Shown here piece after piece: positions 1-33,220 of a stretch of DNA of 33,220 nt. The notes beneath the pieces are model-generated. The model was given only the letters and a program-made list of their open reading frames with translations. It was not told the DNA's origin and made no database searches. Both the position numbers and the translations under genes were made by a program. Each line of letters begins with the position of its first letter. Within the stretch, counting starts at the first letter, position 1. Source of the DNA: a virus (lineage: Duplodnaviria > Heunggongvirae > Uroviricota > Caudoviricetes); IMG/VR virus record IMGVR_UViG_2874920711_000012, positions 1 to 33,220 of that record, one strand, 5' to 3'.

Positions 1-41
1 ATGGACTGGCAAAAGTGTAGCGGTATTAAGCGCAGCTATTT
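1..41 (+). mobile_element. IS630 terminal segment (partial copy, body lies upstream of the window)
   Basis: Positions 1-41 are the exact inverted complement of the terminus of the complete IS630 at 23547-23589, followed by TA (42-43). Encodes the same transposase C-terminal peptide MDWQKCSGIKRSYL. Confidence 0.7.
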
Positions 42-43
42 AG

Positions 44-279
44 ATAAATGCAGAGATGATTTGGAAAGTATCTTTTCTAAAAATCTTGTTTTGACTATCG
101 ATGTTCTTTTTAACAGAAAGAGTGGGGCAACCTTAAGACATAAATTAGCACATGGTAATTTATATACTAATGCTTGTTACGATGAAACAACGACATATGC
201 ATGCATCCTGATTTTCTTTCTGTGTGCTTATCCTCTCCTACCATATTTTGATACTGTTTTTGAACAGGGCTCTGTTTGA
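44..279 (+). pseudogene. 3' fragment of an AT-rich cargo gene truncated by IS630; contains an Rx4H (HEPN-like) motif RHKLAH
   Basis: Open frame continues from the IS630 end to a stop at 279; low GC versus the phage backbone; lies just upstream of cos at the P2 old/tin-type locus. Only the C-terminal ~78 codons remain in the window. Confidence 0.45.
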
Positions 280-430
280 TAACGTATACGTTGAGGCATA
301 AAACCTATGCATACTTAGCTGCATCAATTTGCACGAGGTATTTCAGTATGCATTTTCTGCGTAATAGTAGGGATTGCTTGGTTTGGTAGTTGTAATTCAA
401 CTGCATTCAAACCGACCCATGAAGCGGGCG

Positions 431-449
431 GGCGAGGCGGGGAAAGCAC
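431..449. other. cos: P2-type cos site (19-nt cohesive end sequence GGCGAGGCGGGGAAAGCAC)
   Basis: Exact match to the recalled P2 cohesive-end sequence, located immediately beyond the 3' end of Q as in P2. Confidence 0.75.
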
Positions 450-618
450 TGCGCGCTGGCGGTGGTGCTGATTTTATTTTTTCAGCGTCTCAGCGCGTCG
501 TGACGGCGCTTAGTCTGCCCGTTGGGGTGTTGGTGTGTCTGCGGGCTGTTTTGTGCTGTGGTGAGCGTGTGAGGGCGTGATGACGGGATGTAAAAAAGCC
601 GCCCGCAGGCGGCGATGT

Positions 619-1653
619 TCAGCCGTTGTCAGTGTCCAGTGAGTAGTTTTTAAAGCGGATGACCTCCTGACCGAGCCAGCCGTTTATCTCGCGGATCCTG
701 TCCTGTAACGGGATAAGCTCATTGCGGACAAAGACCTTTGCCACTTTCTCAATATCACCCAGCGACCCGACGTTCTCCGGCTTGCCGCCCATCAACTGAA
801 AGGGGATGCGGTGCGCGTCAAGCAGGTCAGCGGCGCTGGCTTTTTTGATATTAAAAAAATCGTCCTTCGTTGCCACTTCACTGAGCGGGATAATTTTAAT
901 GCCGTCGGCTTTTCCCTGTGGGGCATAGAGAAACAGGTTTTTAAAGTTGTTGCGGCCTTTCGACTTCACCATGTTTTCGCGAAGCGTTTCGATATCGTTG
1001 CGATCCTGCACGGCATCAGTGACGTACATGATATATCCGGCATGAGCGCCGTTTTCGTAATACTTGCGGCGGAACAGCGTGGCCGACTCATTCAGCCAGG
1101 CAGAATTAAGGGCGCTGAGATATTCCGGCAGACCGTACAGCTCCTGATTAATATCCGGCTCCAGCAGGTGAAACACGGATCCGGGCGCGAAGGCTGTCGG
1201 CTCGTTAAAGGACGGCACCCACCAGTAAACATCCTCCTCCACGCCACGGCGGGTATATTTTGCCGGTGAGGTTTCCAGTCTGATGACCTTACCGGTGGTG
1301 CTGTAACGCTTTTCCAGAAACGCATTACCGAACACCAGAAAATCCAGCACAAAGCGGCTGAAATCCTGCTGGGACAGCCACGGGTGCGGGATAAACGTTG
1401 AAGCCAGAATATTACGTTTGACGTAAATCGGTGAGCTGTGATGCACGGCAGCACGCAGGCTTTTTGCCAGACCGGTAAAGCTGATTGGTGGCTCATACCA
1501 TCTGCTGTTACTGATGCATTCGACGTAATCCAGAATGTCACGGCGGTCGAGTACCGGCACCGGCTCACCAAAGGTGAATACCTCCATTTTCGGGGCGCTG
1601 GCGGTCATTGTTTTTGCCGCAGGTTGCGGTGTTTTCCCTTTTTTCTTGCTCAT
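619..1653 (-). CDS. Q: Portal protein gpQ
   Basis: 344-aa ORF whose sequence and position (next to cos, downstream of P) match the P2 portal protein as recalled. Confidence 0.9.
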   Translation of the reverse strand: MSKKKGKTPQPAAKTMTASAPKMEVFTFGEPVPVLDRRDILDYVECISNSRWYEPPISFTGLAKSLRAAVHHSSPIYVKRNILASTFIPHPWLSQQDFSRFVLDFLVFGNAFLEKRYSTTGKVIRLETSPAKYTRRGVEEDVYWWVPSFNEPTAFAPGSVFHLLEPDINQELYGLPEYLSALNSAWLNESATLFRRKYYENGAHAGYIMYVTDAVQDRNDIETLRENMVKSKGRNNFKNLFLYAPQGKADGIKIIPLSEVATKDDFFNIKKASAADLLDAHRIPFQLMGGKPENVGSLGDIEKVAKVFVRNELIPLQDRIREINGWLGQEVIRFKNYSLDTDNG

Positions 1654-1714
1654 CAGTAAAACTCCAGAATGGTGGATGTCAGCGGAGTGCTGATACCGGC
1701 GGTGAGTGGCTCAT

Positions 1715-3424
1715 TTAACAGGGCGTGCATGGTCGCCCAGGCGAGGTCGGCGTGGCTGGCTTCCTCGCTGCGGCTGGCCTCATAGGTGGCCTGCGTCCGC
1801 TGCTGGTCATGGTCTTGCGGATAGCCATGAACGAGCTGGTGATGTCGGTGGCGCTGACGTCATATTCCAGACAGCCACGGCGGATAACGTCTTTTGCCTT
1901 GAGCACCATTGCGGTTTTCATTTCCGGCGTGTAGCGGATGTCGCGCGCGGCGGGATAGAACGAGCGCACAAGCTGGAACACGCCGACACCGAGGCCGGTG
2001 GCATCAATACCGATGTATTCGACGTTGTATTTTTCGGTGAGTTTGCGGATGGATTCCGCCTGGGTGGCAAAGTCCATACCTTTCCACTGGTGACGCTCAA
2101 GTATTCTGAATTTGCCACCGGCCACCACCGGCGGTGCCAGTACCACGCATCCGGCGCTGTCGCCACGGTGTGACGGGTCGTAACCAATCCATACCGGTCG
2201 GGAGCCGAACGGATTGGCGGCAAACGGCGCATAGTCTTCCCATTCTTCCAGCGTGTCGACCATGCAGCGTTGCAGCTCCTCGAACGGGAATACCGATGCC
2301 TTGTCGTCAACAAATTCACACATGAACAGGTTTTTAAAATCGTCGGCGCTGTTTTCGCGTTTAAGCGGCTCAATGTCGAACAGCGTGCAGCCACCTTTCA
2401 GGGCGTCCTCAATGGTGACAATCTGCCGCCACTGGCCGTCCGCACAGAGAAGCCCACCGGCAAGGGCGTTATGACTGATGTCGATTTCCACGCGTTCGGC
2501 GGCGCTGGCGCGTCCCCGGTTAAACAGTTCACCCGACCAGAACGGGTAGGCGTCGTGCGCCAGCGTGGACGGGGTGGAGAAATAGGTCGAGCGCAGGTGA
2601 CTCTGTGAGGCCATACCTGATGCCATCTTACGCAGTACCTGAAAATTCGGGATCCAGAACATCTCGTCGACGTACAGGTCGCCGTTATGGCTCTGCGCGG
2701 TGTTGGAGTTGGTGCCGAGAAAAATCAGTTTTGCGCCGTTATTGCCCAGGACAATCGGGTCACCGGTCAGGTCAACGTCAACCAGCCGGGCAAAGGCGAT
2801 GATGTATTCGCGGAACACATACGCCTGTGTTTTACTGGCCGACAGAAAAATCTGGTTATGACCGGTTTTCAGGGCGCGCAGCAGCGCCTCGCGGGAAAAA
2901 TAAAACGTCGCGCCAATCTGGCGGGATTTCAGGATATCGCGGATGCGGTGCTCAAGCCCGGCGCGATACCAGTGCAACTGATATTCGAAAGACTGCTCAA
3001 AGAAAATCTGCTCCAGCTTTTCGATGGCTTCGTCACTGAAAAAATTCTTTTTCGGTTTGCGACGCCCGCCTTTGTTGCGGTTAGCGACGTTCGGATTAAG
3101 GTCTGCCTCGTTGCCGGTCTGACTGTAGCGGTTGACCCGCGCCAGTCGTTCAATCTGGCGTCCCAGCAGGTCAATTTCCTTGAAGTCACCGCCGGTTTTC
3201 TGCGGTTTGATAATGAGCTGGGTCAGCCGCGCTTCCAGACTCATTTCGACACGGCTGATGGGGGCAACGCTGTCCCAGCCGTCGCGCTGTTTCCAGCTCT
3301 GCACCGTCGGGCGTTTCATCTGCAACATGGCGGCAATCTGCGGCACGGAAAACCCCTGCCAGTACAGCAGCGCCGCCTGACGACGCGGGTCGTGCAAAAG
3401 AGTGGTGTCTGTGGTGATGGTCAT
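1715..3424 (-). CDS. P: Terminase large (ATPase) subunit gpP, with an apparent C-terminal frameshift
   Basis: N-terminus MTITTDTTLLHDPRRQAALLYWQGF matches P2 gpP as recalled. The last ~25 codons of the ORF look out of frame, so the true stop is probably near 1656. Confidence 0.85.
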   Translation of the reverse strand: MTITTDTTLLHDPRRQAALLYWQGFSVPQIAAMLQMKRPTVQSWKQRDGWDSVAPISRVEMSLEARLTQLIIKPQKTGGDFKEIDLLGRQIERLARVNRYSQTGNEADLNPNVANRNKGGRRKPKKNFFSDEAIEKLEQIFFEQSFEYQLHWYRAGLEHRIRDILKSRQIGATFYFSREALLRALKTGHNQIFLSASKTQAYVFREYIIAFARLVDVDLTGDPIVLGNNGAKLIFLGTNSNTAQSHNGDLYVDEMFWIPNFQVLRKMASGMASQSHLRSTYFSTPSTLAHDAYPFWSGELFNRGRASAAERVEIDISHNALAGGLLCADGQWRQIVTIEDALKGGCTLFDIEPLKRENSADDFKNLFMCEFVDDKASVFPFEELQRCMVDTLEEWEDYAPFAANPFGSRPVWIGYDPSHRGDSAGCVVLAPPVVAGGKFRILERHQWKGMDFATQAESIRKLTEKYNVEYIGIDATGLGVGVFQLVRSFYPAARDIRYTPEMKTAMVLKAKDVIRRGCLEYDVSATDITSSFMAIRKTMTSSGRRPPMRPAAARKPATPTSPGRPCTPC

Positions 3425-4525: not shown

Positions 4526-5950
4526 TAATGCCGATCAGTTAAGGATCAGTTGACCGATCCAGTGGCTGTGTAAGAATCCGGAAACGCTCACTTGTTTCCG
4601 GATTTTTTTATGCACATTGGACAGGCTCTTGATCTGGTATCCCGTTACGATTCTCTGCGTAACCCACTGACTTCTCTGGGGATTACCTCGACCCCGAACT
4701 CATCTCTCGTTGCCTTGCCGAATCAGGTACTGTAACGCTACGCAAGCGCCGTCTTCCCCTCGAAATGATGGTCTGGTGTATTGTTGGCATGGCGCTTGAG
4801 CGTAAAGAACCTCTTCACCAGATTGTGAATCGCCTGGACATCATGCTGCCGGGCAATCGCCCCTTCGTTGCCCCCAGTGCCGTTATTCAGGCCCGCCAGC
4901 GCCTGGGAAGTGAGGCTGTCCGCCGCGTGTTCACGAAAACAGCGCAGCTCTGGCATAACGCCACGCCGCATCCGCACTGGTGCGGCCTGACCCTGCTGGC
5001 CATCGATGGTGTGTTCTGGCGCACACCGGATACACCAGAGAACGATGCAGCCTTCCCCCGCCAGACACATGCCGGGAACCCGGCGCTCTACCCGCAGGTC
5101 AAAATGGTCTGCCAGATGGAACTGACCAGCCATCTGCTGACGGCTGCAGCCTTCGGCACGATGAAGAACAGCGAAAATGAGCTTGCTGAGCAACTTATAG
5201 AACAAACCGGCGATAACACTCTGACGTTAATGGATAAAGGTTATTACTCACTGGGACTGTTAAATGCCTGGAGCCTGGCGGGAGAACACCGCCACTGGAT
5301 GATACCTCTCAGAAAGGGAGCGCAATATGAAGAGTTCAGAAAACTGGGTAAAGGCGATCATCTGGTGAAGCTGAAAACCAGCCCGCAGGCACGAAAAAAG
5401 TGGCCGGGACTGGGAAATGAAGTGACAGCCCGCCTGCTGACCGTGACGCGCAAAGGAAAAGTCTGCCATCTGCTGACGTCGATGACGGACGCCATGCGCT
5501 TCCCCGGAGGAGAAATGGCGGATCTGTACAGTCATCGCTGGGAAATCGAACTGGGATACAGGGAGATAAAACAGACGATGCAACTGAGCAGGCTGACGCT
5601 GAGAAGTAAAAAGCCGGAGCTTGTGGAGCAAGAGCTGTGGGGTGTCTTACTGGCTTATAATCTGGTGAGATATCAGATGATTAAAATGGCGGAACATCTG
5701 AAAGGTTACTGGCCGAATCAACTGAGTTTCTCAGAATCATGCGGAATGGTGATGAGAATGCTGATGACATTGCAGGGCGCTTCACCGGGACGTATACCGG
5801 AGCTGATGCGCGATCTTGCAAGTATGGGACAACTTGTGAAATTACCGACGAGAAGGGAAAGGGCCTTCCCGAGAGTGGTAAAGGAGAGGCCCTGGAAATA
5901 CCCCACAGCCCCGAAAAAGAGCCAGTCAGTTGCTTAACTGACTGGCATTA
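4526..5950 (+). mobile_element. IS4 (1425 bp) with 13-bp target-site duplication GCGCCAGGAAACC
   Basis: Terminal inverted repeats TAATGCCGATCAGTTAAGG at 4526 and its complement ending 5950; identical 13-bp direct repeats at 4513-4525 and 5951-5963. Confidence 0.9.
4610..5937 (+). CDS. IS4 transposase (apparent N-terminal frameshift near 4672)
   Basis: ATG at 4610 ([20 protein letters not shown]) shifts frame in a G-run; the remainder (ORF 4765-5937) matches IS4 transposase as recalled. Confidence 0.85.
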
Positions 5951-7025: not shown

Positions 7026-7318
7026 ATGACGAGTCCCGCACAGCGCCACATGATGCGGGTCTCGGCAGCGATGACCGCGCAGCGGGAAGCAGCCCGCTGC
7101 GACATGCAACTGTCTATGAGCAGATGCTGGTTAAGCTCGCCGTAGACCAGCGCACACTGAAAGCAATTTATTCAAAAGAGCTGAAGGCCGCGAAAAAACG
7201 CGAACTGCTGCCGTTCTGGTTGCCGTGGGTGAATGGCGTGCTGCCGCACGGCACCGCCGTCGAACTGCCCGACGTTCAGACCGCGCCCGTGGCTGAAACT
7301 GTCAATCTGTGGGAGTAA
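7026..7318 (+). pseudogene. M: Deletion remnant: 5' part of terminase small subunit gene M fused to the 3' end of tail gene X; L absent
   Basis: Starts MTSPAQRHMMRVSAAMTAQREAA (gpM-like), shifts frame at a C-run, and ends …LPHGTAVELPDVQTAPVAETVNLWE (gpX C-terminus as recalled). Only 296 bp separate the N stop from the Y start, where P2 has M+L+X (about 1.5 kb). Confidence 0.6.
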
Positions 7319-7321
7319 CGC

Positions 7322-7602
7322 ATGACAGCAGAAGAAAAAAGCGTTCTGTCGCTTTTCATGATTGGGGTGCTGATTGTTGTCGGCAAGGTGCTTGCCGGTG
7401 GTGAACCCATCACCCGCGTCTGTTTATCGGGCGCATGTTGCTCGGTGGTTTTGTCTCGATGGTTGCCGGTGTTGTTCTGGTGCAGTTTCCTGACCTGTCA
7501 CTGCCTGCGGTGTGCGGCATTGGCTCCATGCTGGGTATCGCCGGTTATCAGGTGATTGAGATTGCCATTCAGCGCCGCTTTAAGGGCAGGGGGAAACCGT
7601 AA
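7322..7602 (+). CDS. Y: Holin gpY (apparent frameshift near 7410)
   Basis: MTAEEKSVLSLFMIGVLIVVGKVLAGGEPIT… hydrophobic holin-like start; frame breaks at a C-run and the alternate frame runs to the stop overlapping the K start. Confidence 0.75.
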
Positions 7603-13654: not shown

Positions 13655-15756
13655 TGAGCACAAAATTCAGAACCGTTATCACCACTGCCGGTGCAGCAAA
13701 GCTGGCAGCGGCAACCGCACCGGGAGGCGGAAGGTCAACATTACCACGATGGCCGTCGGGATGGCGGTGGTAAATTGCCTGTCCCGGATGCCGGACAGAC
13801 CGGGCTTATCCATGAAGTCTGGCGACATGCGCTGAACAAAATCAGCCAAGACAAACGAAACAGTAATTATATTATCGCAGAGCTGGTTATTCCGCCGGAG
13901 GTGGGCGGTTTCTGGATGCGTGAGCTTGGCCTGTACGATGATGCGGGAACGTTAATTGCCGTGGCGAACATGGCCGAAAGTTATAAGCCAGCTCTTGCCG
14001 AAGGCTCAGGGCGTTCGCAGACCTGCCGTATGGTCATCATCGTCAGCAGTGTGGCCTCAGTGGAGCTGACCATTGACACCACAACGGTGATGGCGACGCA
14101 GGATTACGTTGATGACAAAATTGCAGAGCACGAACAGTCACGACGTCACCCGGACGCCTCGCTGACCGCAAAAGGTTTTACTCAGTTAAGCAGTGCGACC
14201 AACAGCATGTCTGAAACACTGGCTGCAACGTCGAGAGCGGTAAAGACCGCCTATGACCTTGCTAACGGGAAATATACCGCGCAGGATGCCACCACCGCGC
14301 GAAAAGGCCTTGTTCAGCTCAGTAGTGCGACTAACAGCACGTCTGAAACGCTCGCCGCAACGCCGAAAGCATATGACCTTGCTAACGGGAAATACACTGC
14401 ACAGGATGCCACAACAGCGCGAAAAGGCCTTGTTCAGCTCAGTAGCGCCACCAACAGTGATTCTGAAACGCAGGCTGCAACGCCAAAGGCGGTGAAGTCT
14501 GCCTATGACAATGCTGAAAAACGTCTTCAGAAAGATCAGAACGGTGCGGATATCCCTGATAAAGAACGCTTCCTGAGTAACATTAATGTTTACAGCAAAG
14601 GTGAAGTGGATAAGAAAAAGGGAATGCGAAAGTATTCGTTTGCAGCCCCTGCAAATGTCGTTGCCGGGAAGTGGTACCCCGTTATCTTTCGCCGTGCTGC
14701 CAGCCTTTCAGGAGAAATGGCATCCCGCGTTGTTATTTCCACTGGTTGTTATAACGGCGATTATGTAATGAATAACTGCGAGTTTAATGGCATGGTTATG
14801 CCCGGAGGCTGGACTGATCGTGGTTCATATGCGGCAGGTTATTACTGGACGTATCAGACTAATGAGCGTTCAATCCATTCCATTGTTACAAGCCTGAAAG
14901 ATGATGATGTATGTAGTGTTTTTTATGTTGAAGCCAGAGCTTTCCCTGTACAAATTCTTGCAGAGGAAGGGCTAACGGTTATTGTTCCGACAGAGGATTA
15001 TGTCGTCGGTCAAACGACATATAAGTGGGGGGCAACTAATCCCGCTACAGAAAGCACGAACGCACAGGCTATTCTGGATTTTAAAAATGGACGTGGTTAT
15101 TACTGTTCACATCCATTTATTTCCAGCCTTTCAGGAAATGCTGCAACAGCAACGAAGTTAGCGAACGCAAGAAATATTAATGGTGTCAGATTTGATGGCT
15201 CTGCCGATATAAATATTAATACACTGGTATCCAGAAACCGTGTTACTGCATTAGGTGGGAGCGTAAAGGGGACACCAGGTATTCAGATGTATGAGGCATA
15301 CAACAATGGCTACCCAACAGCCTATGGTAATGTGCTTCATCTCACTGGCGTAACCGCAGTAGGAGAGGGTGAGTTACTTATTGGTTGGAGTGGAACCAGC
15401 GGTGCTCATGCTCCGGCATATATTCGTTCCCGACGAGATACCACAGATGCTAACTGGTCTGGATGGGCGCAACTATATACAACTGCTCATAAACCTCAGC
15501 GGGAGATGTTGGTGCATACACCAAAACTGAGTCAGATTCACGTTATGTGAGAGACATGCGGCTGGGCGGTGCATCTACATATAAACCAGCAAATAATGGT
15601 ACTACATGGACGCATCAGGCTCCGTCAGGTTGCGTATATACCGGCATTATTGTTCAGGATACCGGCTCAAACTCTGCCGATAACATTGGTGGCGTATATT
15701 ACAGACCGGTGCAGAAATACATTAACGGGACATGGTATAACGTGGTGCAGGTATAA
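13655..15756 (+). CDS. H: Tail fiber protein gpH (apparent frameshifts near 13725, 13760 and 15545)
   Basis: ATG 13655 encodes MSTKFRTVITTAGAAKLAAATAPG (gpH N-terminus); frame breaks in G-runs; contains SSATNS…AYDLANGKYTAQDATTARKGLVQL repeats; AT-rich distal (receptor-binding) part continues into ORF 15547-15756. Confidence 0.8.
14170..14480 (+). repeat. Coding tandem repeats (~120-nt unit, about 3 copies) inside the tail fiber gene
   Basis: Repeated peptide QLSSATNS(x)SETLAATPKA…YDLANGKYTAQDATTARKGLV visible three times in the gpH translation. Confidence 0.6.
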
Positions 15757-18094: not shown

Positions 18095-18180
18095 GGGCAA
18101 ATCCACCTGCCTTTTTTCGTTTCTGCGCAAGTTAGCTCTGTTATTATAATCCTTACTCACACTGTAAGGACATAGTTCAA

Positions 18181-18309
18181 ATGACTGAATGGCTTAATGC
18201 ACATTTTGGTGCAGACGCAGCTACCTATCTTAGCTTATTAGTCGGCGTACTGGCACTGTTTGGTATTGGGGCGGTGTTACATATAGAATCAGACAGCAAA
18301 ACAACATAA
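18181..18309 (+). CDS. Small TM peptide ORF (42 aa); possibly the N-terminal part of one gene with 18339-18797
   Basis: ATG at 18181 with AAGGA upstream and a TATAAT at 18145-18150; hydrophobic stretch LSLLVGVLALFGIGAVL. The downstream ORF frame is open back to 18232, so a single base difference in 18232-18306 would fuse the two. Confidence 0.4.
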   Translation: MTEWLNAHFGADAATYLSLLVGVLALFGIGAVLHIESDSKTT

Positions 18310-18338: not shown

Positions 18339-18797
18339 GTGAACCAGGCCGGGCGGGATATTAATCAGACCACCAACGTTTACCACACATCCAATGAATC
18401 TACTGAGGACCCTGTAAAAAAAAAGCAAGATGAACATGATCTGAAGATAATCGACCAGATCCTTGAATTGCTGCCTTATGAGGATACTACTCAATGGGTT
18501 GAGCAGAGCTACCTGAGCGGTATACGGCAAGATGTTTGCTTAAACATTGAAAAAGCTGAAAAATTTAGCGGTGAAAAGTATCGGTTATTCAATACTGAAG
18601 TGAATGGTGCGAAAGACGCTTTTTTGGACGCTATGACCGCATACGTAGATAGTACGCTACCATTTATGAGTGTTGATTACCCGAACAGAAAGCCAGTGAT
18701 GCTAAGCCTTCCCCATGACTGGAAGAGTAAGAGTGTTGAATCGGAGGCAAACTTCCGCTTTCATCAGCAAAATGTGCGTGAAACATCGGGGGGATGA
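18339..18797 (+). CDS. Hypothetical protein (152 aa as called)
   Basis: AT-rich ORF with no recognised motif; followed by a terminator hairpin that is split by the IS10-like element. Confidence 0.5.
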   Translation: MNQAGRDINQTTNVYHTSNESTEDPVKKKQDEHDLKIIDQILELLPYEDTTQWVEQSYLSGIRQDVCLNIEKAEKFSGEKYRLFNTEVNGAKDAFLDAMTAYVDSTLPFMSVDYPNRKPVMLSLPHDWKSKSVESEANFRFHQQNVRETSGG

Positions 18798-18955: not shown

Positions 18956-20255
18956 CTGAGGGATCCCCACAAAATTACTGCTAATAAACCAGCACCATAT
19001 TTCGGTAGGTTCTGGACAGATGGTTTAGAACTGTGCTCAGTACTGTTCGTCTTAAAATAAGTGGCGAGTGTCGAAGAACATTCTTCGCTAACGTCAGATA
19101 TGAGATAACCCGCCGGGATTTAATGCTGTTAGCCTGATATTTCAGGTGTAACCCTTTATTTTCAGCGTGATAACCGAGTAACCACATTACGATAGTGCTC
19201 AACGTTGCCAGCAGACTCAGAACCAGAATTCTTCCTGTTGAACGACTTTTGCTGGCCCGAAGACCAAATCCGAAGCGCCCGTTCTTTTCATCACGAAAGT
19301 TTTGCTCTATCTGCATTCGCCGACTGTATAACTTGATGATTTCTCGCGCTCTGAAGTCATTTGTACTGCTGAAGATCAACCAGGCTTCTTTTGCTGATTT
19401 GCTCTGTTCTTTGTCTGTTTTGTTTAAACCACTCTGACCTTTCGAACGTTTCTTTTTTCGCCCTTTTGCCGATTTCTTATAGGTGTAAAAATGCCCCGGA
19501 TGCTTTTTTTCCTTTCTTTAACCAGCCTTCCAGCCCCCATATATTCCGGTGTTTTACATTCAGGGCTATCCGACACTTTTAACCATCTTTCAGGCGCGTT
19601 ATCGAGGCAATACTGAACGTTATTTCTGATCCGACCAATAAAATCCCAGCCCAGAGAAGTAATATGGTGAAACCATGCGCTCTGAAATCCAGCATCCGTG
19701 ACAATAATAACCCTGGCATCGGGGGGCAGGGATTGAGCAAGGGAATCAAGGAAATCATGTTGTATCAATGGATTATTTTGTTTTTCAGAAGGAACAACCT
19801 TACTCAATAACGGAATGGAACGCCCGTCACACAGAAGGCTGGCACGAAGAACATGATGCTCCTGGGAGGGATAGCCACTCCAGTCTACGGCTATTACACA
19901 TAAAGATAACTGCCGTGTCAGCATTGAAGTGATATTCCTGAAAATCATTGGAATATCGCGATGGAGCGCCTCATTACCCATGAGGCGATCAATACGTTTG
20001 CTCTTATTCTTAACTTGTGCATTACCCGGGAAAAAACGTCCGATACTGGTCAGCGTCAGAGATGCTCCGTTGATTAACGCCACTGTGGCATCCATCAGGG
20101 CATTTTGTCGGTACTGATGAAATGGTGCTAAGGCATCCCGGAAGAAATTCTGACATACTTTATGAACAGGCATAGCAGTGATCTCATTGAATTGTTGGCA
20201 CAAATCAGTAGATCACATAATGCTATGTCTGTCTCGTTTTCTGGGAATTCCTCAG
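18956..20255 (-). mobile_element. IS10-like element (IS4 family, ~1300 bp) with 9-bp target-site duplication CCCTCCGGG
   Basis: Imperfect terminal inverted repeats CTGAGGGATCCCCACAAAA (18956-) and complement of CTGAGGAATTCCCAGAAAA (-20255); direct repeats at 18947-18955 and 20256-20264; inserted in a terminator hairpin. Confidence 0.75.
18981..20203 (-). CDS. IS10-like DDE transposase, split into two ORFs (apparent frameshift near 19380-19425)
   Basis: N-part has KRIDRLMGN, IAVDWSG and IVTDAGF motifs; C-part has the YREK signature (YSRRMQIEQNFRDEK); clear colinearity with IS10 transposase as recalled. Confidence 0.75.
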
Positions 20256-21472: not shown

Positions 21473-22826
<1,354 letters not shown>

Positions 22827-22898
22827 TGGAGCACCTGTGTTGTTCTGAGGTGAGCATATCACCTCTGTTCAGGTGGCCAAATTCAGTGTGCCACTTCA

Positions 22899-23499: not shown

Positions 23500-24597
23500 T
23501 CATCTATGTGGGGAGAATAAAATCATACTTTTTATATCTGATCCTAAATAGCTGCGCTTAATACCGCTACACTTTTGCCAGTCCATGTTTGCCTCCGGGA
23601 ATGGGCTGACGGTTTCCATAAAATGGCGAACTTTTTTCAACAGTTGCCACATTGAGCGGCACTGATGATTACGCGTTATTGTGTCGTGAAGTGCCTGCCA
23701 TAGCCGTTCAACATGATTCACCCATGGCGAGTAAACCGGCTGATAAATGACCCTGAACTTCGGGTTCTCCTTCAGCCAGCTCTGTGTTTCCCGGCTTTTG
23801 TGGATAATGTAGTTGTCCACGATCAGCGTGATGGTTTTCGCCCGACGGTATGTCGCTTTAAGCCGCTTCAGCAGGCTGATGAACAGCGCCGAACTTTTGC
23901 TGTTGCCGCCCACATAGCTGACTTTACCTGTCCCGCTGTGCAGCGCTCCGGCCAGATAATATTTTTCATTCTGTCCCGGCGTGACCACCCGTTTTTGCTG
24001 TCCGCGCAGTTGCCAGTCCGCACCGATTTTGGGATGAAGATGGATATCCACTTCATCTTCATAAAAGACCGGATGCTCTGCGCTGCATTCGTCCAGTGCT
24101 TTATGGATTGCTGCCATCTTTTCATCTTTATGCGGGTCACGGATACGCAGAGTTGGCGCAGCCCTTCGCCACACAATCCCCGCAGACGGCAACCAGCGGC
24201 GAACGGTTCCGGCATTTAACTGGCAACCGGTTATCTCATTGATTTTTATTGCCAGCAGTTCTGTACTCCAGCGTGAACGCTGGTAGACAAAGTCGCCGGG
24301 AGAATGTTTTACCAGCTCACGTAACAGTGTGCAGATATGCTCAAACGGCCAGCGACGGGCACGCCCGGCAGGTAATGATTTCAGTCCCTCAACACCCGAC
24401 TGCGTGAACCAGTTAATCCAGCGTCCAACAGAGGAACGGGCGCAGCAGAGCGTTCTGGCAACGTCGCTGACACGGTCGCCCCGGTGCAGCATCAGCATGG
24501 CAGTCAGTCTGCGGGCATAATTTTTATCGTGTGTTTTATGGATGGCTTTCTGCATCAGGCGTCGTTCGTCACGGGAAATTGGTGCTATGATCGGCAT
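23500..24597 (-). CDS. IS630 transposase (ORF as called runs past the IS end)
   Basis: MPIIAPISRDERRLMQKAIHKTHDKNYARRLTAMLMLHRGDRVSDVARTLCCARSSVGRW… matches IS630 transposase as recalled; the last ~15 codons lie outside the element. Confidence 0.85.
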   Translation of the reverse strand: MPIIAPISRDERRLMQKAIHKTHDKNYARRLTAMLMLHRGDRVSDVARTLCCARSSVGRWINWFTQSGVEGLKSLPAGRARRWPFEHICTLLRELVKHSPGDFVYQRSRWSTELLAIKINEITGCQLNAGTVRRWLPSAGIVWRRAAPTLRIRDPHKDEKMAAIHKALDECSAEHPVFYEDEVDIHLHPKIGADWQLRGQQKRVVTPGQNEKYYLAGALHSGTGKVSYVGGNSKSSALFISLLKRLKATYRRAKTITLIVDNYIIHKSRETQSWLKENPKFRVIYQPVYSPWVNHVERLWQALHDTITRNHQCRSMWQLLKKVRHFMETVSPFPEANMDWQKCSGIKRSYLGSDIKSMILFSPHR

Positions 24598-24698
24598 TGC
24601 TCAGTCCGGTTGGTGATTTGTTTTGATTTGGCGATTGATCAGATCGCACAATCCGGGCTAAGTTCCCTCAAAATGATCTACTATTCCGCGCAGCTATT
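23547..24698 (-). mobile_element. IS630 (1152 bp) inserted at a CTAG target with TA duplication
   Basis: Terminal inverted repeats AATAGCTGCGC… at both ends; TA at 23545-23546 and 24699-24700, flanked by C and G. Confidence 0.85.
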
Positions 24699-24993
24699 TA
24701 GGTCTGACCAGCAACCTATTGATCAAAAAACCAAGATATTAGCTAAAAAAATCAGCATACTTGAGACCAAGCTCAATGTCCGCTCCTCGCTCAAAGCAGA
24801 CTGTCAGATTTGATAGCATTTGGGCTATGTAAATTGTCAGGCGGAAAATGAGTGAGTACAAATCAGGACAGGCGGGCGAATTGCCCGCATTTTCTTTATC
24901 TGTTGTTTCATCCCCTGACCAGCCAGGTCAAATAGCGTCTCATGCTCTGCACAACAGAAAATAGTTGCACCCATTAACCACGGAGTTAAACGG

Positions 24994-26182
24994 ATGAGTG
25001 ACTATCATCACGGCGTGCAGGTGCTGGAGATTAACGACGGCACCCGCGTCATTTCCACCGTATCCACGGCCATTGTCGGCATGGTCTGCACGGCCAGCGA
25101 TGCAGATGCGGAAACCTTCCCCTCAATAAACCGGTGCTGATTACCAATGTGCAGAGCGCAATTGCAAAGGCCGGTAAAAAAGGCACGCTGGCGGCGTCGT
25201 TACAGGCCATCGCTGACCAGTCAAAACCGGTCACCGTTGTTGTGCGCGTGGAAGACGGCACCGGCGACGACGAAGAAACGAAGCTCGCGCAGACCGTTTC
25301 CAATATCATCGGCACCACCGACGAAAACGGTCAGTACACCGGACTGAAAGCCCTGCTGGCGGCGGAGTCGGTAACCGGTGTTAAACCGCGCATTCTCGGT
25401 GTGCCGGGACTGGATACCAAAGAGGTGGCTGTTGCACTGGCATCAGTCTGTCAGAAGCTGCGCGCTTTCGGGTATATCAGCGCATGGGGCTGTAAAACCA
25501 TTTCCGAGGTGAAAGCCTACCGCCAGAATTTCAGCCAGCGTGAGCTGATGGTCATCTGGCCGGATTTCCTCGCATGGGATACGGTCACCAGTACCACCTC
25601 CACCGCGTATGCCACCGCCCGTGCGCTGGGGCTGCGCGCTAAAATCGACCAGGAGCAGGGCTGGCATAAAACGCTGTCCAACGTCGGGGTGAACGGTGTT
25701 ACCGGCATCAGCGCGTCCGTATTCTGGGATTTGCAGGAGTCCGGCACCGATGCTGACCTGCTTAACGAGTCAGGCGTCACAACGCTGATTCGCCGTGACG
25801 GTTTCCGCTTCTGGGTAACCGTACCTGCTCTGATGACCCGCTGTTCCTCTTTGAAAACTACACCCGCACCGCGCAGGTGCTGGCCGACACGATGGCTGAG
25901 GCGCACATGTGGGCGGTGGACAAGCCCATCACCGCAACGCTGATTCGCGACATCGTTGACGGCATCAATGCCAAATTCCGTGAGCTGAAAACAAACGGCT
26001 ATATCGTGGATGCGACCTGCTGGTTCAGCGAAGAATCCAACGATGCGGAAACCCTCAAGGCCGGAAAACTGTATATCGACTACGACTATACACCGGTGCC
26101 TCCTCTCGAAAACCTGACCCTGCGCCAGCGTATTACCGATAAATACCAGGCAAATCTGGTCACCTCGGTTAACAGCAATTAA
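24994..26182 (+). pseudogene. FI: Tail sheath protein gpFI with two apparent frameshifts (near 25125 and 25820)
   Basis: [43 protein letters not shown] then a stop; adding one C to the C-run restores …[11 protein letters not shown]…; a second break near GFRFW. Confidence 0.85.
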
Positions 26183-26194: not shown

Positions 26195-26711
26195 ATGGCA
26201 ATGCCGCGCAAACTCAAGTTAATGAACGTCTTTCTGAACGGCTACAGCTATCAGGGCGTTGCAAAGTCCGTCACGCTGCCAAAACTGACCCGTAAACTCG
26301 AAAACTATCGCGGTGCGGGGATGAACGGAAGCGCACCGGTAGACCTCGGCCTTGATGACGATGCGCTGTCAATGGAGTGGTCGCTCGGGCTTCCCGGATT
26401 CGGTTATCTGGGAGCTCTACGCCGCAACCGGCGTGGATGCCGTACCGATTCGTTTTGCTGGCTCTTACCAGCGCGACGATACCGGCGAAACGGTGGCCGT
26501 CGAGGTGGTCATGCGTGGCCGTCAGAAAGAAATCGACACCGGCGAGGGGAAACAGGGAGAAGACACCGAGTCGAAAATCTCCGTGGTCTGCACCTATTTC
26601 CGGCTGACGATGGACGGTAAGGAGCTGGTCGAAATCGACACCATCAACATGATTGAGAAGGTGAACGGTGTCGACCGGCTGGAGCAACACCGCCGCAATA
26701 TCGGCCTGTGA
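26195..26711 (+). pseudogene. FII: Tail tube protein gpFII with one apparent frameshift near 26395
   Basis: MAMPRKLKLMNVFLNGYSYQGVAKSV… then a frame change in a G-run; remainder of the protein is in ORF 26352-26711. Confidence 0.85.
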
Positions 26712-27193: not shown

Positions 27194-29631
27194 AACAATG
27201 TAAAATTACAGGTATTGCTCAGGGCTGTTGACCAGGCATCCCGCCCGTTTAAATCCATCCGCACAGCGAGCAAGTCGCTGTCGGGGATATCCGGGAAACA
27301 CAAAAATCACTGCGCGAGCTGAACGGTCACGCATCCCGTATTGAGGGATTTCGCAAGACCAGTGCACAGCTCGCCGTGACTGGTCATGCACTTGAAAAGG
27401 CACGGCAGGAGGCCGAAGCCCTTGCCACACAGTTTAAAAACACCGAACGTCCCACCCGTGCTCAGGCGAAAGTGCTGGAATCCGCAAAGCGTGCGGCGGA
27501 GGACTTACAGGCGAAATATAACCGCCTGACGGATTCCGTTAAACGCCAGCAGCGGGAACTGGCCGCTGTGGGAATTAATACCCGCAATCTTGCACATGAT
27601 GAGCAGGGACTGAAAAACCGTATCAGTGAAACCACCGCACAACTTAACCGTCAGCGCGACGCGCTGGCGCGTGTCAGTGCGCAACAGGCAAAACTTAACG
27701 CAGTAAAACAGCGTTATCAGGCCGGAAAGGAACTGGCCGGAAATATGGCCTCAGTAGGCGCTGCCGGTGTGGGGATTGCGGCGGCGGGAACGATGGCCGG
27801 AGTTAAGTTGCTGATGCCCGGTTATGAGTTTGCGCAGAAAAACTCAGAATTGCAGGCCGTGCTAGGAGTGGCAAAAGACTCCGCCGAAATGGCCGCGCTA
27901 CGCAAGCAGGCGCGCCAGCTCGGTGACAATACCGCCGCCTCAGCGGATGATGCGGCCGGTGCGCAGATTATCATTGCGAAAGCGGGTGGAGATGTTGATG
28001 CCATTCAGGCGGCAACGCCGGTCACGCTGAATATGGCGCTGGCGAACCGCCGCACGATGGAAGAAAACGCCGCCCTGCTGATGGGATGAAATCCGCCTTT
28101 CAGCTTTCAAACGATAAGGTTGCTCATATCGGGATGTTCTCTCCATGACGATGAACAAAACCGCCGCCGATTTTGACGGCATGAGCGATGCGCTGACCTA
28201 TGCCGCACCTGTGGCAAAAAATGCCGGTGTCAGCATTGAAGAAACCGCCGCAATGGTCGGGGCACTGCATGATGCAAAAATTACCGGTTCAATGGCGGGG
28301 ACGGGAAGCCGTGCCGTGTTAAGCCGCCTGCAGGCACCGACGGGAAAAGCATGGGATGCACTGAAAGAGCTTGGTGTGAAAACCTCAGACAGCAAGGGAA
28401 ACACCCGGCCAGTATTTACCATTCTGAAAGAAATGCAGGCCAGTTTTGATAAAAACCGGCTCGGTACTGCCCAGCAGGCTGAATACATGAAAACCATTTT
28501 CGGGAGGAGGCCAGCTCAGCCGCTGCTGTGCTGATGACTGCCGCCTCAACCGGAAGGCTGGACAAACTGACCGCTGCGTTTAAAGCCTCAGACGGGAAGA
28601 CCGCGGAGCTGGTAAATATCATGCAGGACAACCTCGGCGGTGACTTTAAGGAGTTTCAGTCCGCTTATGAGGCGGTAGGGACTGACCTGTTTGACCAGCA
28701 GGAAGGCGCGCTGCGTAAGCTCACGCAGACGGCCACAAAGTATGTGTTAAAACTCGACGGCTGGATACAGAAAAACAAATCACTGGCGTCAACTATCGGC
28801 CTCATTGCCGGTGGCGCACTGGTGCTGACTGGCATCATCGGTGCCATTGGTCTTGTAGCCTGGCCGGTTATCACCGGCATCAATGCCATTATCGCGGCAG
28901 CAGGCGCAATGGGGGCAATCTTCACGACGGTTGGCAGTGCTGTTATGACGGCCATCGGGGCGATTAGCTGGCCGGTTGTGGCCGTGGTGGCCGCCATTGT
29001 CGCCGGGGCGTTGCTTATCCGTAAATACTGGGAGCCTGTCAGCGTATTCTTCGGCGGTGTGGTTGAAGGGCTGAAAGCGGCATTTGCGCCGGTGGGGGAA
29101 CTGTTCACGCCACTTAAGCCGGTGTTTGACTGGCTGGGTGAAAAGTTACAGGCCGCGTGGCAGTGGTTTAAAAACCTGATTGCACCGGTCAAAGCCACCC
29201 AGGACACCCTGAACCGTTGCCGTGACACGGGCGTCATGTTCGGGCAGGCACTGGCTGACGCGCTGATGCTGCCGCTTAATGCGTTCAACAAACTGCGCAG
29301 CGGTATTGACTGGGTACTGGAAAAACTCGGCGTCATCAACAAAGAGTCAGACACACTTGACCAGACCGCCGCCAGAACTCATGCCGCCACGTATGGCACC
29401 GGTGGTTATATTCCGGCGACCAGCTCTTATGCAGGCTATCAGGCTTATCAGCCGGTCACGGCACCGGCTGGCCGCTCTTATGTGGACCAGAGTAAAAACG
29501 AATATCACATCAGCCTGACCGGTGGTACTGCGCCGGGGACACAGCTTGACCGCCAGTTACAGGATGCGCTCGAAAAATACGAGCGGGATAAACGAGCGCG
29601 CGCCCGTGCCAGCATGATGCATGACGGTTAA
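27188..29631 (+). CDS. T: Tail tape measure protein gpT (at least three apparent frameshifts)
   Basis: ATG 27188 (MSNNVKLQVLLRAVDQASRPFKSIRTASKSLSG…) continues through ORFs 27376-28089, 28145-28534 and 28528-29631; Ala/Gly-rich hydrophobic core. Confidence 0.85.
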
Positions 29632-29645
29632 GGAGGTGACGAAAA

Positions 29646-30146
29646 ATGATGCTCGCGTTAGGTATGTTTGTTTTTATGCGCCAGACGCTGCCACATCAGA
29701 CCATGCAGCGTGAATCAGATTATCGCTGGCCGTCAAATTCCCGTATCGGTAAACGGGATGCCTATCAGTTTCTCGGTGTAGGTGAGGAGAACATCACACT
29801 TGCCGGTGTGCTTTATCCCGAACTGACTGGCGGAAAGCTGACGATGACCACGCTCAGACTGATGGCAGAGGAAGGCCGGGCGTGGCCGTTGCTGGATGGC
29901 ACCGGCATGATTTACGACATGTATGTCATCAGCAAGGTGAGTGAAACAGGGAGTATTTTCTTTGCAGACGGCACACCCCGGAAAATTGATTTTACGCTGT
30001 CGCTCACCCGCGTTGATGAGTCACTGGCCGCGCTTTATGGCGATATCGGTAAACAGGCGGAATCGCTCATCGGTAAGGCTGGCAGTATGGCGACTAAATT
30101 CACGGGTATGACGGGGCGGGATAATGCTGGATGCGCTGACATTTGA
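29646..30146 (+). CDS. U: Tail protein gpU
   Basis: 166-aa ORF between T and D, P2 gpU-like. Confidence 0.8.
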   Translation: MMLALGMFVFMRQTLPHQTMQRESDYRWPSNSRIGKRDAYQFLGVGEENITLAGVLYPELTGGKLTMTTLRLMAEEGRAWPLLDGTGMIYDMYVISKVSETGSIFFADGTPRKIDFTLSLTRVDESLAALYGDIGKQAESLIGKAGSMATKFTGMTGRDNAGCADI

Positions 30147-31368: not shown

Positions 31369-31587
31369 ATGTTTCATTGTCCTTTATGCCAGCATGCCGC
31401 ACATGCGCGTACAAGCCGCTATATCACTGACACGACAAAAGAGCGTTATCACCAGTGTCAGAACGTGAATTGCAGTGCCACGTTCATCACTTATGAGTCG
31501 GTACAGCGATACATCGTGAAGCCGGGAGAAGTCCACGCCGTAAGGCCGCACCCGTTGCCATCAGGGCAGCAAATTATGTGGATGTAA
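31369..31587 (+). CDS. ogr: Ogr zinc-finger late transcription activator
   Basis: MFHCPLCQHAAHARTSRYITDTTKERYHQCQNVNCSATF… (72 aa, CxxC…CxxxxC); the ORF track's upstream extension is unlikely. Confidence 0.85.
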   Translation: MFHCPLCQHAAHARTSRYITDTTKERYHQCQNVNCSATFITYESVQRYIVKPGEVHAVRPHPLPSGQQIMWM

Positions 31588-31597
31588 TTACAAACAG

Positions 31598-31624
31598 AAA
31601 GCCCCTCAGTCGAGGGCTTTTTTG
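31598..31624 (+). terminator. Intrinsic terminator after ogr
   Basis: Hairpin AAAGCCCCTCAGTCGAGGGCTTT followed by a T-run. Confidence 0.6.
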
Positions 31625-31687
31625 TCGATGTGGTCAATGTGTGGACGTGACCAGAAATAAATCCTTTTATTTCAATTTATTGTACGT

Positions 31688-31714
31688 AAAAAATAAGCCC
31701 GTGTAAGGGAGATT
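31688..31714. other. attR: P2 att core at the prophage right junction (attR)
   Basis: AAAAAATAAGCCCGTGTAAGGGAGATT matches the recalled P2 att core; overlaps the CyaR terminator. Confidence 0.65.
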
Positions 31715-31774
31715 ACACAGGCTAAGGAGGTGGTTCCTGGTACAGCTAGCATTTTATGGGTTATGTTTTTCAGC
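31688..31774 (-). ncRNA. cyaR: CyaR (RyeE) Hfq-dependent sRNA
   Basis: Reverse complement reads GCTGAAAAACATAACCCATAAAATGCTAGCTGTACCAGGAACCACCTCCTTAGCCTGTGTAATCTCCCTTACACGGGCTTATTTTTT, matching CyaR as recalled, including its terminator. Confidence 0.85.
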
Positions 31775-31858
31775 GAAACGGATGATAACCTTAATAAATG
31801 CAGCTGTATGTGATCGGTTTCTAAGAATTTTCCATCCGGGAAAAATAATCGAAATTAA

Positions 31859-33220
31859 TCACTTACCGTGGGGGTTACGCGTGGTTTCCCCGGAGAAATT
31901 ACGCATTAGCAGCGCGTAATTTAGCTCAAGATCCTGCGGGACCGGGAGCCACACAGTATAACCATCGCCTGGTGCGACCGGCATAGCTTCGCCTTTGGCG
32001 TTTTCCATGTGCTCAAGGGTAAAGTTAATGTTGCCTTGCGGCGTCATCAGCTCAAGACTGTCGCCAACGGAGAATTTATTTTTCACCGCTACCGCTGCGA
32101 GGTCCCCCTTGCGCTCACCGGTAAACTCACCAACAAACTGCTGGCGGTCAGAAACTGAATAACCGTATTCGTAGTTCTGATAATCGTCGTGAGTATGACG
32201 ACGCAGGAAACCTTCGGTATAGCCACGATGCGCCAGACCTTCCAGAGTTTCCAGCAGGCTGGTATCGAACGGTTTTCCCGCAGCGGCGTCATCGATAGCT
32301 TTGCGGTAAACCTGTGCGGTGCGTGCGCAATAGTAGAAAGATTTGGTACGACCTTCGATTTTCAGCGAATGCACGCCCATTTTGGTCAGGCGTTCTACAT
32401 GGGCGATGGCGCGCAGATCTTTCGAGTTCATGATGTAAGTGCCGTGCTCATCTTCAAACGCGGTCATATACTCGCCCGGACGCTGGGCCTCTTCGATCAT
32501 AAACACTTTGTCGGTTGGCGCGCCGATACCCAGCGTCGGCTCAACATTTTGCACCGGAATCGGCTCGTACTTGTGTACGATGTTGCCAACGTCATCTTCT
32601 TTCCCTTCCTGGACGTTGTACTCCCAGCGGCAGGCGTTGGTGCAGGTACCCTGGTTCGGATCGCGCTTGTTGATATAGCCAGAGAGCAGGCAGCGACCGG
32701 AGTAGGCCATGCACAGTGCGCCGTGAACGAAGATCTCGATCTCCATATCCGGCACCTGATTGCGGATCTCTTCAATCTCTTCAAGCGACAGCTCGCGAGA
32801 GAGGATCACGCGGGTCAGGCCCATTTGCTGCCAGAATTTCACCGTCGCCCAGTTTACGGCGTTAGCCTGCACCGAGAGGTGGATCGGCATTTCAGGGAAG
32901 TGCTCACGCACCAGCATAATCAGCCCTGGATCGGACATAATCAGCGCATCCGGCCCCATTTCCACCACCGGTTTCAGGTCACGGATAAAGGTTTTCAGCT
33001 TGGCGTTGTGCGGTGCAATGTTGACCACGACATAAAACTTTTTCCCCAGCGCGTGGGCTTCATTGATGCCGAGCTGAAGATTTTCGTGGTTGAATTCGTT
33101 GTTGCGCACACGTAGGGAGTAACGCGGCTGGCCCGCATAAACAGCATCTGCGCCATAAGCGAAAGCGTAACGCATATTTTTCAGCGTTCCCGCCGGGGAA
33201 AGGAGTTCCGGTTTAAACAT
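31859..33220 (-). CDS. yegQ: Peptidase U32-family protein YegQ (host gene)
   Basis: 453-aa ORF starting at the last base of the window; sequence matches enterobacterial YegQ as recalled; it flanks cyaR and the P2-like ogr locus as in E. coli K-12. Confidence 0.85.
   Translation of the reverse strand: MFKPELLSPAGTLKNMRYAFAYGADAVYAGQPRYSLRVRNNEFNHENLQLGINEAHALGKKFYVVVNIAPHNAKLKTFIRDLKPVVEMGPDALIMSDPGLIMLVREHFPEMPIHLSVQANAVNWATVKFWQQMGLTRVILSRELSLEEIEEIRNQVPDMEIEIFVHGALCMAYSGRCLLSGYINKRDPNQGTCTNACRWEYNVQEGKEDDVGNIVHKYEPIPVQNVEPTLGIGAPTDKVFMIEEAQRPGEYMTAFEDEHGTYIMNSKDLRAIAHVERLTKMGVHSLKIEGRTKSFYYCARTAQVYRKAIDDAAAGKPFDTSLLETLEGLAHRGYTEGFLRRHTHDDYQNYEYGYSVSDRQQFVGEFTGERKGDLAAVAVKNKFSVGDSLELMTPQGNINFTLEHMENAKGEAMPVAPGDGYTVWLPVPQDLELNYALLMRNFSGETTRNPHGK

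Follow-up and report, generated by a model that had tools for sequence, protein, structure and literature searches.

Assemblies built from PacBio reads only have been reported to lose single G/C bases systematically in short homopolymers; in the study of the ARAMIS pipeline (PMC8574707), the affected runs were 4-6 bases long in the two high-GC bacteria examined, and proteins were truncated even at high coverage. Spectra linked to mismatch-repair deficiency have been described as dominated by transitions, along with small indels (PMC5854121). The window analysed here, a stretch of 33,220 nucleotides, holds a P2-like prophage remnant that adjoins trhP/yegQ in a host lineage of the Shigella dysenteriae type. 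Intact E. coli P2 prophages (L001 and L002 among the loci) served as the reference, and against them the window carries 27 small frame-relevant lesions. Twenty-five of the 27 single-base losses are private to one GenBank record, CP026824.1, and sequence comparison indicates that these 25 are very probably consensus errors of that assembly, not mutations.

The record CP026824.1, which belongs to assembly GCA_002949875.1, is identical to the window (100%) wherever a source locus was compared, the stretch 1-13424 included, and beyond 13424 further source loci of the record continue the window. A passage of PMC7819885 credits CP026774 and CP026878 to a collection of 59 historical Shigella strains sequenced with PacBio (Kim et al. 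2018); the accession CP026824 falls between these two, and its place in that range suggests a PacBio long-read origin for CP026824.1. The comparison set consisted of 24 further assemblies of this prophage, namely the Sanger assembly of S. dysenteriae 1012 (AAMJ02), drafts, assemblies of SRA runs and another two long-read genomes, with 2-10 independent assemblies covering each of the 25 sites. At 23 of these sites every other assembly covering the site has the longer run; at the remaining two (18788 and 27283) all others do except the long-read genome CP027027.1, which matches the window.

The spectrum of the private changes is narrow. The initial annotation had described both gains and losses, a claim that does not hold, since none of the 25 private indels is an insertion in the comparison with other assemblies of the prophage, and at the lone apparent gain, in IS4 (4603-4609), the T7 of the window is normal for that element and it is the sister genome CP027027.1 that deviates. 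Twenty-four of the 25 deletions lie in G/C runs whose true length is 3-7 bases; the other is in an A8 run. Only two substitutions, at 14231 and 16364, are private to the record, against 25 private indels in 33 kb. G/C runs of at least 3 bases make up 5.9% of the window yet contain 24/25 private indels (binomial P ~1e-27, calculated on 24/26 before one T-run site was reclassified), and among runs of at least 4 bases, 22/115 G/C runs were struck versus 1/378 A/T runs (Fisher P 4e-14). The miss rate per run rises with true length, from 0.4% at 3 bases to 12% at 4 and 42% at 5, with 3/5 struck at 6-7 bases. The density of false frameshifts is ~0.75 per kb in the window region and their spread is uneven: window 13.6-31.7 kb holds 21 deletions versus 11.6 expected, and none falls in the right-hand host genes (9.6 kb) versus 4.8 expected (permutation P ~2e-4, for segments picked post hoc). 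Such a distribution along the region is not predicted by a uniform error process.

Over 5-8.5 kb, short-read contigs that match the window without a single mismatch differ from it at these runs alone. L031 (8546 bp) shows 10 gaps and L039 (5011 bp) shows 5, and L022, L024 and L025, likewise with 0 mismatches, show two each, all at runs; L039 also carries the otherwise private substitutions at 14231 and 16364 but is without the run deletions. The longer runs are present alike in Sanger (AAMJ02), draft, SRA-run and long-read assemblies, and unrelated E. coli sequences, both intact P2 prophages and IS copies, have them too. When the 25 bases are added back, full-length reading frames are regained for Y (93 aa), H (701), FI (396), T (815) and U (159), for the transposases of IS4 (442 aa), ISSfl1 (397) and IS630 (343), and for a cargo ORF (227).

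At the left end of the window, genuine and spurious lesions stand side by side. The terminase gene P (minus strand) has lost one base at 1790..1791, where the canonical GGCGCTG reads GGCCTG; the change (GCGC to GCC) involves no homopolymer, and on this point the attribution of breaks to C or G runs fails, although it stands for 24/25 private deletions. This deletion is common to the 10/10 independent assemblies covering the site, 8 of them draft or short-read. The resulting protein has 569 aa and an altered C-terminus, and exactly this product is recorded in 41 blocks of the assembly collection. An IS4 at 4526..5950 (plus strand), flanked by a 13-bp target duplication, separates the start codon of the major capsid gene N from the rest of the gene; CP027027.1 and UYIS01 have IS4 at the same position, and short-read contigs stop there. 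Within its transposase, the run at 4678..4681 (plus strand) is G4 where the relatives have G5, splitting an ORF of 442 aa (corrected) into 41 + 390 aa; the only three sequences covering this site, the long-read relatives CP027027.1 and UYIS01 and an E. coli copy of IS4 (L004), all have G5. Further right and on the plus strand, the M remnant reads C3 for C4 at 7093..7095 and the holin gene Y reads C3 for C4 at 7413..7415, with C4 in 6/6 other assemblies at both sites; these two artefacts shorten the M-X fusion ORF to 64 aa versus 97 aa in all relatives, and Y to 77 aa versus 93 aa. The fusion itself is genuine: at 7238..7253 (plus strand) ~1.25 kb has been lost, comprising the end of M, the whole of L and the first part of X, with HSPs joining L001 8232 to 9479 and the 97-aa fusion ORF present in all relatives.

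In the tail-fibre gene H (plus strand) three runs are classed as artefacts, G2 for G3 at 13726..13727, G3 for G4 at 13758..13760 and, close to the 3' end, C2 for C3 at 15494..15495; the longer form is found in 10/10 other assemblies at each, and H is 701 aa in the relatives and in the corrected window. The same 10/10 applies to two intergenic runs that read G5 for G6, one downstream of G (16581..16585) and one immediately left of IS2 (16758..16762). The IS2 insertion (16776..18105, plus strand) is genuine, with a 5-bp target duplication and intact OrfA (121 aa) and OrfB (301 aa); its left terminal repeat carries an artefactual C4 for C5 at 16784..16787 (plus strand; C5 in 6/6 others). The 227-aa cargo ORF (plus strand) is struck twice, by an artefact at 18268..18271 (G4 for G5; G5 in 6/6 others and three E. 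coli homologues) and a probable one at 18788..18793 (G6 for G7; G7 in 5/6 others and three E. coli homologues), G6 at the latter being found elsewhere only in long-read CP027027.1. The doubt that the initial annotation extended to the cargo ORFs is therefore justified, as this ORF is among the genes broken in the record only, apart from the change at 18788 shared with CP027027.1.

Three further insertions, all on the minus strand and all genuine, follow in the cargo region. The element previously called IS10-like is in fact ISSfl1, of the IS4 family (18956..20255, with a 9-bp target duplication), and its transposase run at 19494..19497 (minus strand) is an artefactual C4 for C5 (C5 in 4/4 others; 249 aa versus 397 aa in relatives). 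An IS911 at 21655..22898 interrupts a DUF6650-like cargo gene and has two artefacts in orfB, both on the minus strand, one close to the 3' end (21718..21721, G4 for G5) through which the ORF runs into flanking DNA, and one in the 5' part (22471..22473, C3 for C4), the longer run being present in 3/3 others at both. An IS630 at 23547..24698, inserted at TA, reads G3 for G4 close to the 3' end of its transposase (23597..23599, minus strand; G4 in 5/5 others; 365 aa versus 343 aa in relatives). Measured against E. coli reference copies (1301, 1246 and 1153 bp), the ISSfl1, IS911 and IS630 of the window (1300, 1244 and 1152 bp) fall short by exactly 1, 2 and 1 bases. A second IS630 copy in the same genome has G4 at this run but its own, different run deletion, so that two copies with 0 mismatches differ solely by two run-length changes. 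The insertions of IS4, IS2, ISSfl1, IS911 and IS630 and the M-L-X deletion are shared with relatives. The IS load amounts to five elements of five kinds within 33 kb.

The sites in FI, FII, T and U that follow are on the plus strand. The intergenic run upstream of FI (24745..24751), which reads A7 for A8, is the sole A/T-run site; A8 is found in 5/5 others and in three E. coli homologues. In the tail-sheath gene FI two artefacts, C4 for C5 at 25119..25122 and G3 for G4 at 25813..25815 (longer in 5/5 others at both), are superimposed on a gene of 396 aa in the relatives and in the corrected window. The tail-tube gene FII is a mixed case: the run at 26387..26389 is G5 in the intact phages L001 and L002, G4 in five relatives (5/5) and G3 in the window, one base having been genuinely lost and one being an artefact, and FII is still frameshifted once the artefact is corrected. 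The two examples that had been singled out earlier, in FI and FII, are correctly placed. For the tape-measure gene T at least three breaks had been counted and the actual number is four: a probable artefact at 27283..27286 (G4 for G5; G5 in 4/5 others, only long-read CP027027.1 also having G4) and G3 for G4 at 28083..28085, 28131..28133 and 28502..28504 (G4 in 5/5 others at each); T is 815 aa in the relatives and in the corrected window. The final codons of U read G4 for G5 at 30113..30116 (G5 in 5/5 others), giving 166 aa versus 159 aa in relatives, and in the hairpin after ogr (CCCCTCAGTCGAGGGG then T6) the run at 31614..31616 is G3 for G4 (G4 in 5/5 others; intergenic).

Natural programmed -1 frameshift sites account for the frame changes at IS2 orfA/B (A6G at 17183), IS911 orfA/B (A6G at 22575) and E/E' (T6G at 27016); these are not lesions, and the heptamers are unchanged and identical in all relatives. 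Frame breaks were confirmed in every gene of the initial annotation's list (P, IS4 transposase, M, Y, H with three, FI with two, FII, T, the IS2 end, IS911 orfB and the ISSfl1 transposase), and its suggestion that homopolymer sequencing error explains their density at least as well as real decay was upheld by the break-by-break comparison with close relatives that it had called for. It had overlooked the breaks in U (30113-30116), IS630 (23597-23599), the second in IS911 (21718-21721) and those in the cargo ORF (18268-18271 and 18788-18793), as well as four intergenic runs. The expectation that the structural genes, once polished, would prove intact but for the IS4 insertion and the M-X deletion is nearly correct, except that the frameshifts of P and FII (G5 to G4) remain. 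Since both are common to every relative, the P frameshift and the one FII base are, on the compared sequences, taken as real lesions. Beneath the errors the prophage is truly dead, through lesions common to all relatives: P and FII are frameshifted, N has IS4 at its start, the M-L-X segment is deleted, the G/FI cargo carries four IS insertions and the whole early region is lost. The P deletion, FII G4, the IS insertions and M-L-X are shared across assemblies of the lineage, and the 25 run deletions are not. For the deletions at 18788 and 27283, which CP027027.1 shares, the case for error is weaker, and shared ancestry instead of recurrent error could explain them.

As to the cause, long-read base calls of the PacBio CLR type would systematically lose one base in G/C homopolymers, and polishing of the consensus without short reads would leave the missing bases unrecovered, with low local usable read depth probably contributing; gene callers would then report split Y, H, FI, T, U, IS4, ISSfl1, IS911, IS630 and cargo ORFs. 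That local coverage underlies the uneven spread is a guess.

An alternative is that the 25 run losses are real and specific to the isolate, acquired in a mutator episode or over decades of storage, while selection kept the flanking host genes clean. Homopolymer single-base indels whose rate rises with run length are indeed a known signature of mismatch-repair loss (PMC5854121); however, 25 indels versus 2 substitutions in 33 kb is unlike mismatch-repair-deficient spectra (PMC5854121). Frameshifts would be neutral in a prophage already dead, and the prophage and IS region does have a higher density of deletions than the host flank on the right, but selection is a weak account of that clean flank, since its genes mdtBCD and baeSR are non-essential. 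Nor does genuine decay fit with losses only, 24/25 of them in G/C runs and with 1 of 378 A/T runs of at least 4 bases struck, with different run losses in each of two IS630 copies of one genome, or with a short-read assembly that has the source's private SNPs and is without the deletions; a loss of 12-42% per 4-5-base run would moreover imply a load with as many substitutions. Isolate-specific pseudogenisation is thus very unlikely and close to refuted. A localised, G/C-run-specific deletion process acting in a silent prophage without substitutions, such as slippage-prone repair or replication limited to this segment, by which the deletions or at least the dense 13.6-31.7 kb cluster would be real, appears very improbable indeed.

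That the window is correct and its relatives are wrong, or bear real insertions from a common ancestor, is a formal possibility only, even with two of the comparison genomes also being long-read, and it deserves next to no credence: the longer runs occur across Sanger, draft, SRA-run and long-read assemblies and in unrelated E. coli P2 prophages and IS copies, and full-length ORFs arise from them, so that this reading is refuted in effect. Programmed -1 frameshifting does exist in the window, at IS2, IS911 and E/E', which might invite the view that the runs have a function as slippery or phase-variable tracts, be it as contingency loci or as programmed frameshift sites. The runs are just 3-7 bases long, however, and spread over unrelated genes, IS ends and intergenic DNA; the real slippery heptamers sit elsewhere, unaltered; and no run-length variation was found among the 24 other assemblies at the 25 sites, bar CP027027.1 at two. 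A functional role for the runs is accordingly vanishingly improbable. Consensus error of CP026824.1 is the preferred reading; it brings no new biology, and its value is one of quality control. False frameshifts in this 'complete' Shigella genome inflate pseudogene counts and break transposase, tail and cargo (candidate defence) ORFs, and unpolished use of the record could mislead work on Shigella genome decay, IS activity and prophage integrity; the real prophage lesions (P, FII, IS4 in N, M-L-X and the IS insertions) are now told apart from the false ones.

Compared with known systems, the deletions resemble programmed -1 frameshifting of the IS3 family and the P2 E/E' tail chaperone in that a gene that is intact looks frame-broken, but the sites of the latter are A6G/T6G heptamers, a motif found at none of the 25 deletion sites. 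As in phase-variable homopolymer tracts, a change in G/C run length shifts the reading frame; unlike contingency loci, the runs are short, lie in arbitrary genes and non-coding DNA, change in one direction and are invariant in other isolates (CP027027.1 at two excepted). Genuine Shigella genome decay is recognised in the five IS kinds in 33 kb, the shared P and FII frameshifts and two large deletions, whereas the 25 run deletions occur in no close relative, CP027027.1 at two sites excepted, and come without the expected substitutions. The likeness is to the PacBio-only (CLR) errors of PMC8574707, with single G/C losses, a minority of short runs struck and truncated proteins despite polishing, although in that study longer runs were struck no more often and in the window the rate climbs steeply with run length; the window density of ~0.75 per kb is also high and locally clustered, for a record whose technology is inferred. 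The errors of PMC8574707 were removed by short reads.

A P2-like prophage is represented in the window by its late-gene half (Q P O N M ... FI FII E T U D ogr), which adjoins CyaR and trhP/yegQ and is interrupted by five insertion sequences: IS4 (4526-5950), IS2 (16776-18105), ISSfl1 (18956-20255), IS911 (21655-22898) and IS630 (23547-24698). An exact-protein look-up with the frameshifted terminase showed positions 1-13424 to be 100% identical to CP026824.1 (GCA_002949875.1), and the remaining sequence, with about 8 kb beyond either end, was recovered by further look-ups; a scan of species-representative genomes for a 30-mer specific to the window gave no match. Such look-ups also supplied the comparators, namely the same prophage in 24 other assemblies: AAMJ02 (S. 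dysenteriae 1012, serotype 4, sequenced by TIGR), two other long-read genomes (CP027027.1 and UYIS01), eight further NCBI drafts and 13 assemblies from public SRA runs. The draft and SRA-run contigs stop at IS copies, as is typical of short-read contigs, and these assemblies are presumably short-read. Coverage was counted once per independent assembly and not per locus, since several loci can share one assembly; the alignment references were the intact E. coli P2-type prophage at locus L001 (96-97% identity) and the cargo copies at L002 and L003 (99.4% identical).

When intact proteins were used as tblastn queries, broken frames were found in P, M, Y, H (three), FI (two), FII, T (four) and U, and unbroken ones in Q, O, K, lysABC, R, S, V, W, J, I, G, E/E', D, ogr and trhP; the IS-borne breaks lie in the transposase genes of IS4, ISSfl1, IS911 (two) and IS630, and in the IS2 terminal repeat. 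Alignment and tblastn confirmed every break listed in the initial annotation, a list that proved incomplete. All but one of the small gaps relative to L001 and L002/L003 are bases absent from the window, nearly all in G or C runs. Of the private indels, those seen in CP026824.1 and absent from other assemblies of the same prophage, 24 of 25 fall in G/C runs of at least three bases, which make up 5.9% of the sequence (binomial P ~1e-27, calculated from an earlier count of 24 of 26 that preceded the reclassification of one T-run site). Among runs of at least four bases, 22 of 115 G/C runs were struck versus 1 of 378 A/T runs (P 4e-14), and the miss rate climbs with true run length, from 2 of 491 at three bases through 11 of 91 at four, 8 of 19 at five and 2 of 4 at six to the single run of seven (1 of 1). 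A flanking-sequence motif was rejected as the determinant: GGGGAT is frequent at struck runs, but many unstruck runs share the same contexts. The base 3' of the run, in G orientation and with all sites tallied, is A in 9 cases, C in 8 and T in 3.

Comparison with relatives separates two kinds of lesion. The P lesion (GCGC to GCC, 1790/1791) is present in all 10 covering assemblies, eight of them draft or short-read, and is therefore real. At FII the run is G5 in intact phages, whereas all five relatives have G4 and the window has G3; one of the lost bases is real and the other private. Besides the FII base, CP026824.1 has 24 private losses: for 22 of them the longer run is found in every other assembly (2-10 per site), and for the remaining two, 18788 and 27283, everywhere except in the long-read CP027027.1. 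Locus L031 aligns to 24675-33220 with no mismatches and 10 gaps, every gap at a run; L039 aligns to 11763-16773 with no mismatches and five gaps, and L022, L024 and L025 show no mismatches and two gaps apiece. The only two otherwise source-private substitutions, 14231 and 16364, also occur in L039, the nearest known relative, which nevertheless carries none of the deletions; the assembly GCA_026140245.1 has the source's private SNPs as well. The private changes in the window amount to 25 deletions, no insertions and two substitutions. The initial annotation had suspected homopolymer sequencing error and advised comparing each break with close relatives; that comparison yielded the 25 private single-base losses, and the longer runs in other assemblies of the same prophage support the suspicion. 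Its description of both gains and losses did not hold, no private insertion being found; the lone apparent gain, T7 in IS4, is not an inserted base, since an E. coli IS4 copy and UYIS01 show T7 to be normal and CP027027.1 to be the deviating sequence.

Restoring the 25 bases yields full-length Y (93 aa), H (701), FI (396), T (815) and U (159), full-length transposases of IS4 (442), ISSfl1 (397) and IS630 (343), and a cargo ORF of 227 aa; the lesions that remain are exactly the shared ones. Two IS630 copies within the same genome show no mismatches and are separated only by two different run-length changes, and E. coli copies exceed those of the window by exactly one (ISSfl1), two (IS911) and one (IS630) bases. 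The comparisons argue that the run deletions are an assembly artefact overlying a genuinely defective prophage. The initial annotation was largely right: the breaks are present, and the relatives support error.

The deletions are unevenly spread. The right half of the prophage (13601-31700) holds 21 versus 11.6 expected with run length allowed for, and the 9.6 kb of right-hand host genes (31701-41287 of the extended source) none versus 4.8 expected, so that deletions cease sharply at the prophage/host boundary on this side (permutation P ~2e-4, with segments picked post hoc). On the left flank, run deletions occur in gatZ and in the second IS630 copy, where the sole comparator is one other long-read genome. 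No flanking motif explaining the uneven spread was found around struck versus unstruck runs; usable read depth might have dipped locally around the IS cluster during polishing. CP027027.1 (loci L007/L017/L028) shares with the window G6 for G7 (18788) and G4 for G5 (27283), has T6 for T7 in IS4 (window-equivalent 4603-4609) and has an additional A that splits gatD (upstream -4651); it is probably affected by the same error class, at a much lower rate.

The real lesions comprise the small frameshifts in P and FII, the separation of N from its start codon by IS4, a 1.25-kb deletion spanning M-L-X, four IS insertions in the cargo between G and FI, and the lost early region, with IS630 and yegR directly left of the window. 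A 92-aa ORF at 1-279 preserves only the C-terminal end of a large PDC-S39/DUF4209-like protein, whose gene is cut by the IS630 copy immediately to the left, followed by yegR; the whole prophage early region is therefore gone. The E. coli relative L004 has a complete DUF7380 gene at the position of this ORF. IS-driven erosion of the prophage is real and ongoing within the lineage. In S. dysenteriae 1012, CP027027.1 and AMJQ01 (L027-L029) an extra IS30-family element (383-aa transposase) lies within IS911 at 22564/22565, and is absent from the IS911 of the window; from S. dysenteriae 1012 the whole segment between Q and mid-H is missing too, and IS630 there adjoins an H remnant. The H gene contains internal repeat blocks of ~130 bp (14170-14515) with 12-bp length differences among phages, relative L034 differing from the window by 12 bp, and the short-read contigs of relatives break in H at 14161.

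The cargo between G and FI (16360-24778) is a three-gene cassette of 227-aa and 261-aa ORFs, neither with a family match, and a 250-aa DUF6650-type protein whose first ~120 residues match the PADLOC candidate defence family PDC-M68A (E 4e-24) and also HNH endonuclease effectors of CBASS/SAVED systems. IS911 genuinely interrupts this third gene. Copies of the cassette at ~99.4% identity occur in many E. coli, and the one at L003 sits among non-phage genes. Cargo also lies between S and V (9978-11269), a second slot with two minus-strand ORFs of 188 aa and 139 aa that lack a convincing match in Pfam or PADLOC; the 188-aa protein is unchanged across all relatives. The CyaR (RyeE) sRNA gene is intact between ogr and trhP (31691-31776, minus strand; 100.7 bits), and a nearby hairpin 3' of ogr (31602-31622) bears one artefactual G-run deletion.

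The only serious rival, a true mutator history, fails on the spectrum: mismatch-repair loss yields transitions alongside homopolymer indels (PMC5854121), whereas in the window private substitutions are nearly absent, private insertions are absent, and A/T runs are spared. Sequencing error remains the preferred reading, and its use is as a warning on the public record CP026824.1, the finding being otherwise of little interest. Accessions CP026774 to CP026878 have been attributed to a PacBio dataset covering 59 historical Shigella strains (PMC7819885); CP026824 falls within this range and is therefore probably PacBio-only. PacBio-only assemblies have been reported to carry systematic single-base G or C deletions in short homopolymers (4-6 bases long in the pair of high-GC bacteria studied), which survive high coverage and truncate proteins (PMC8574707), and the deletion spectrum of the window is the one reported there.
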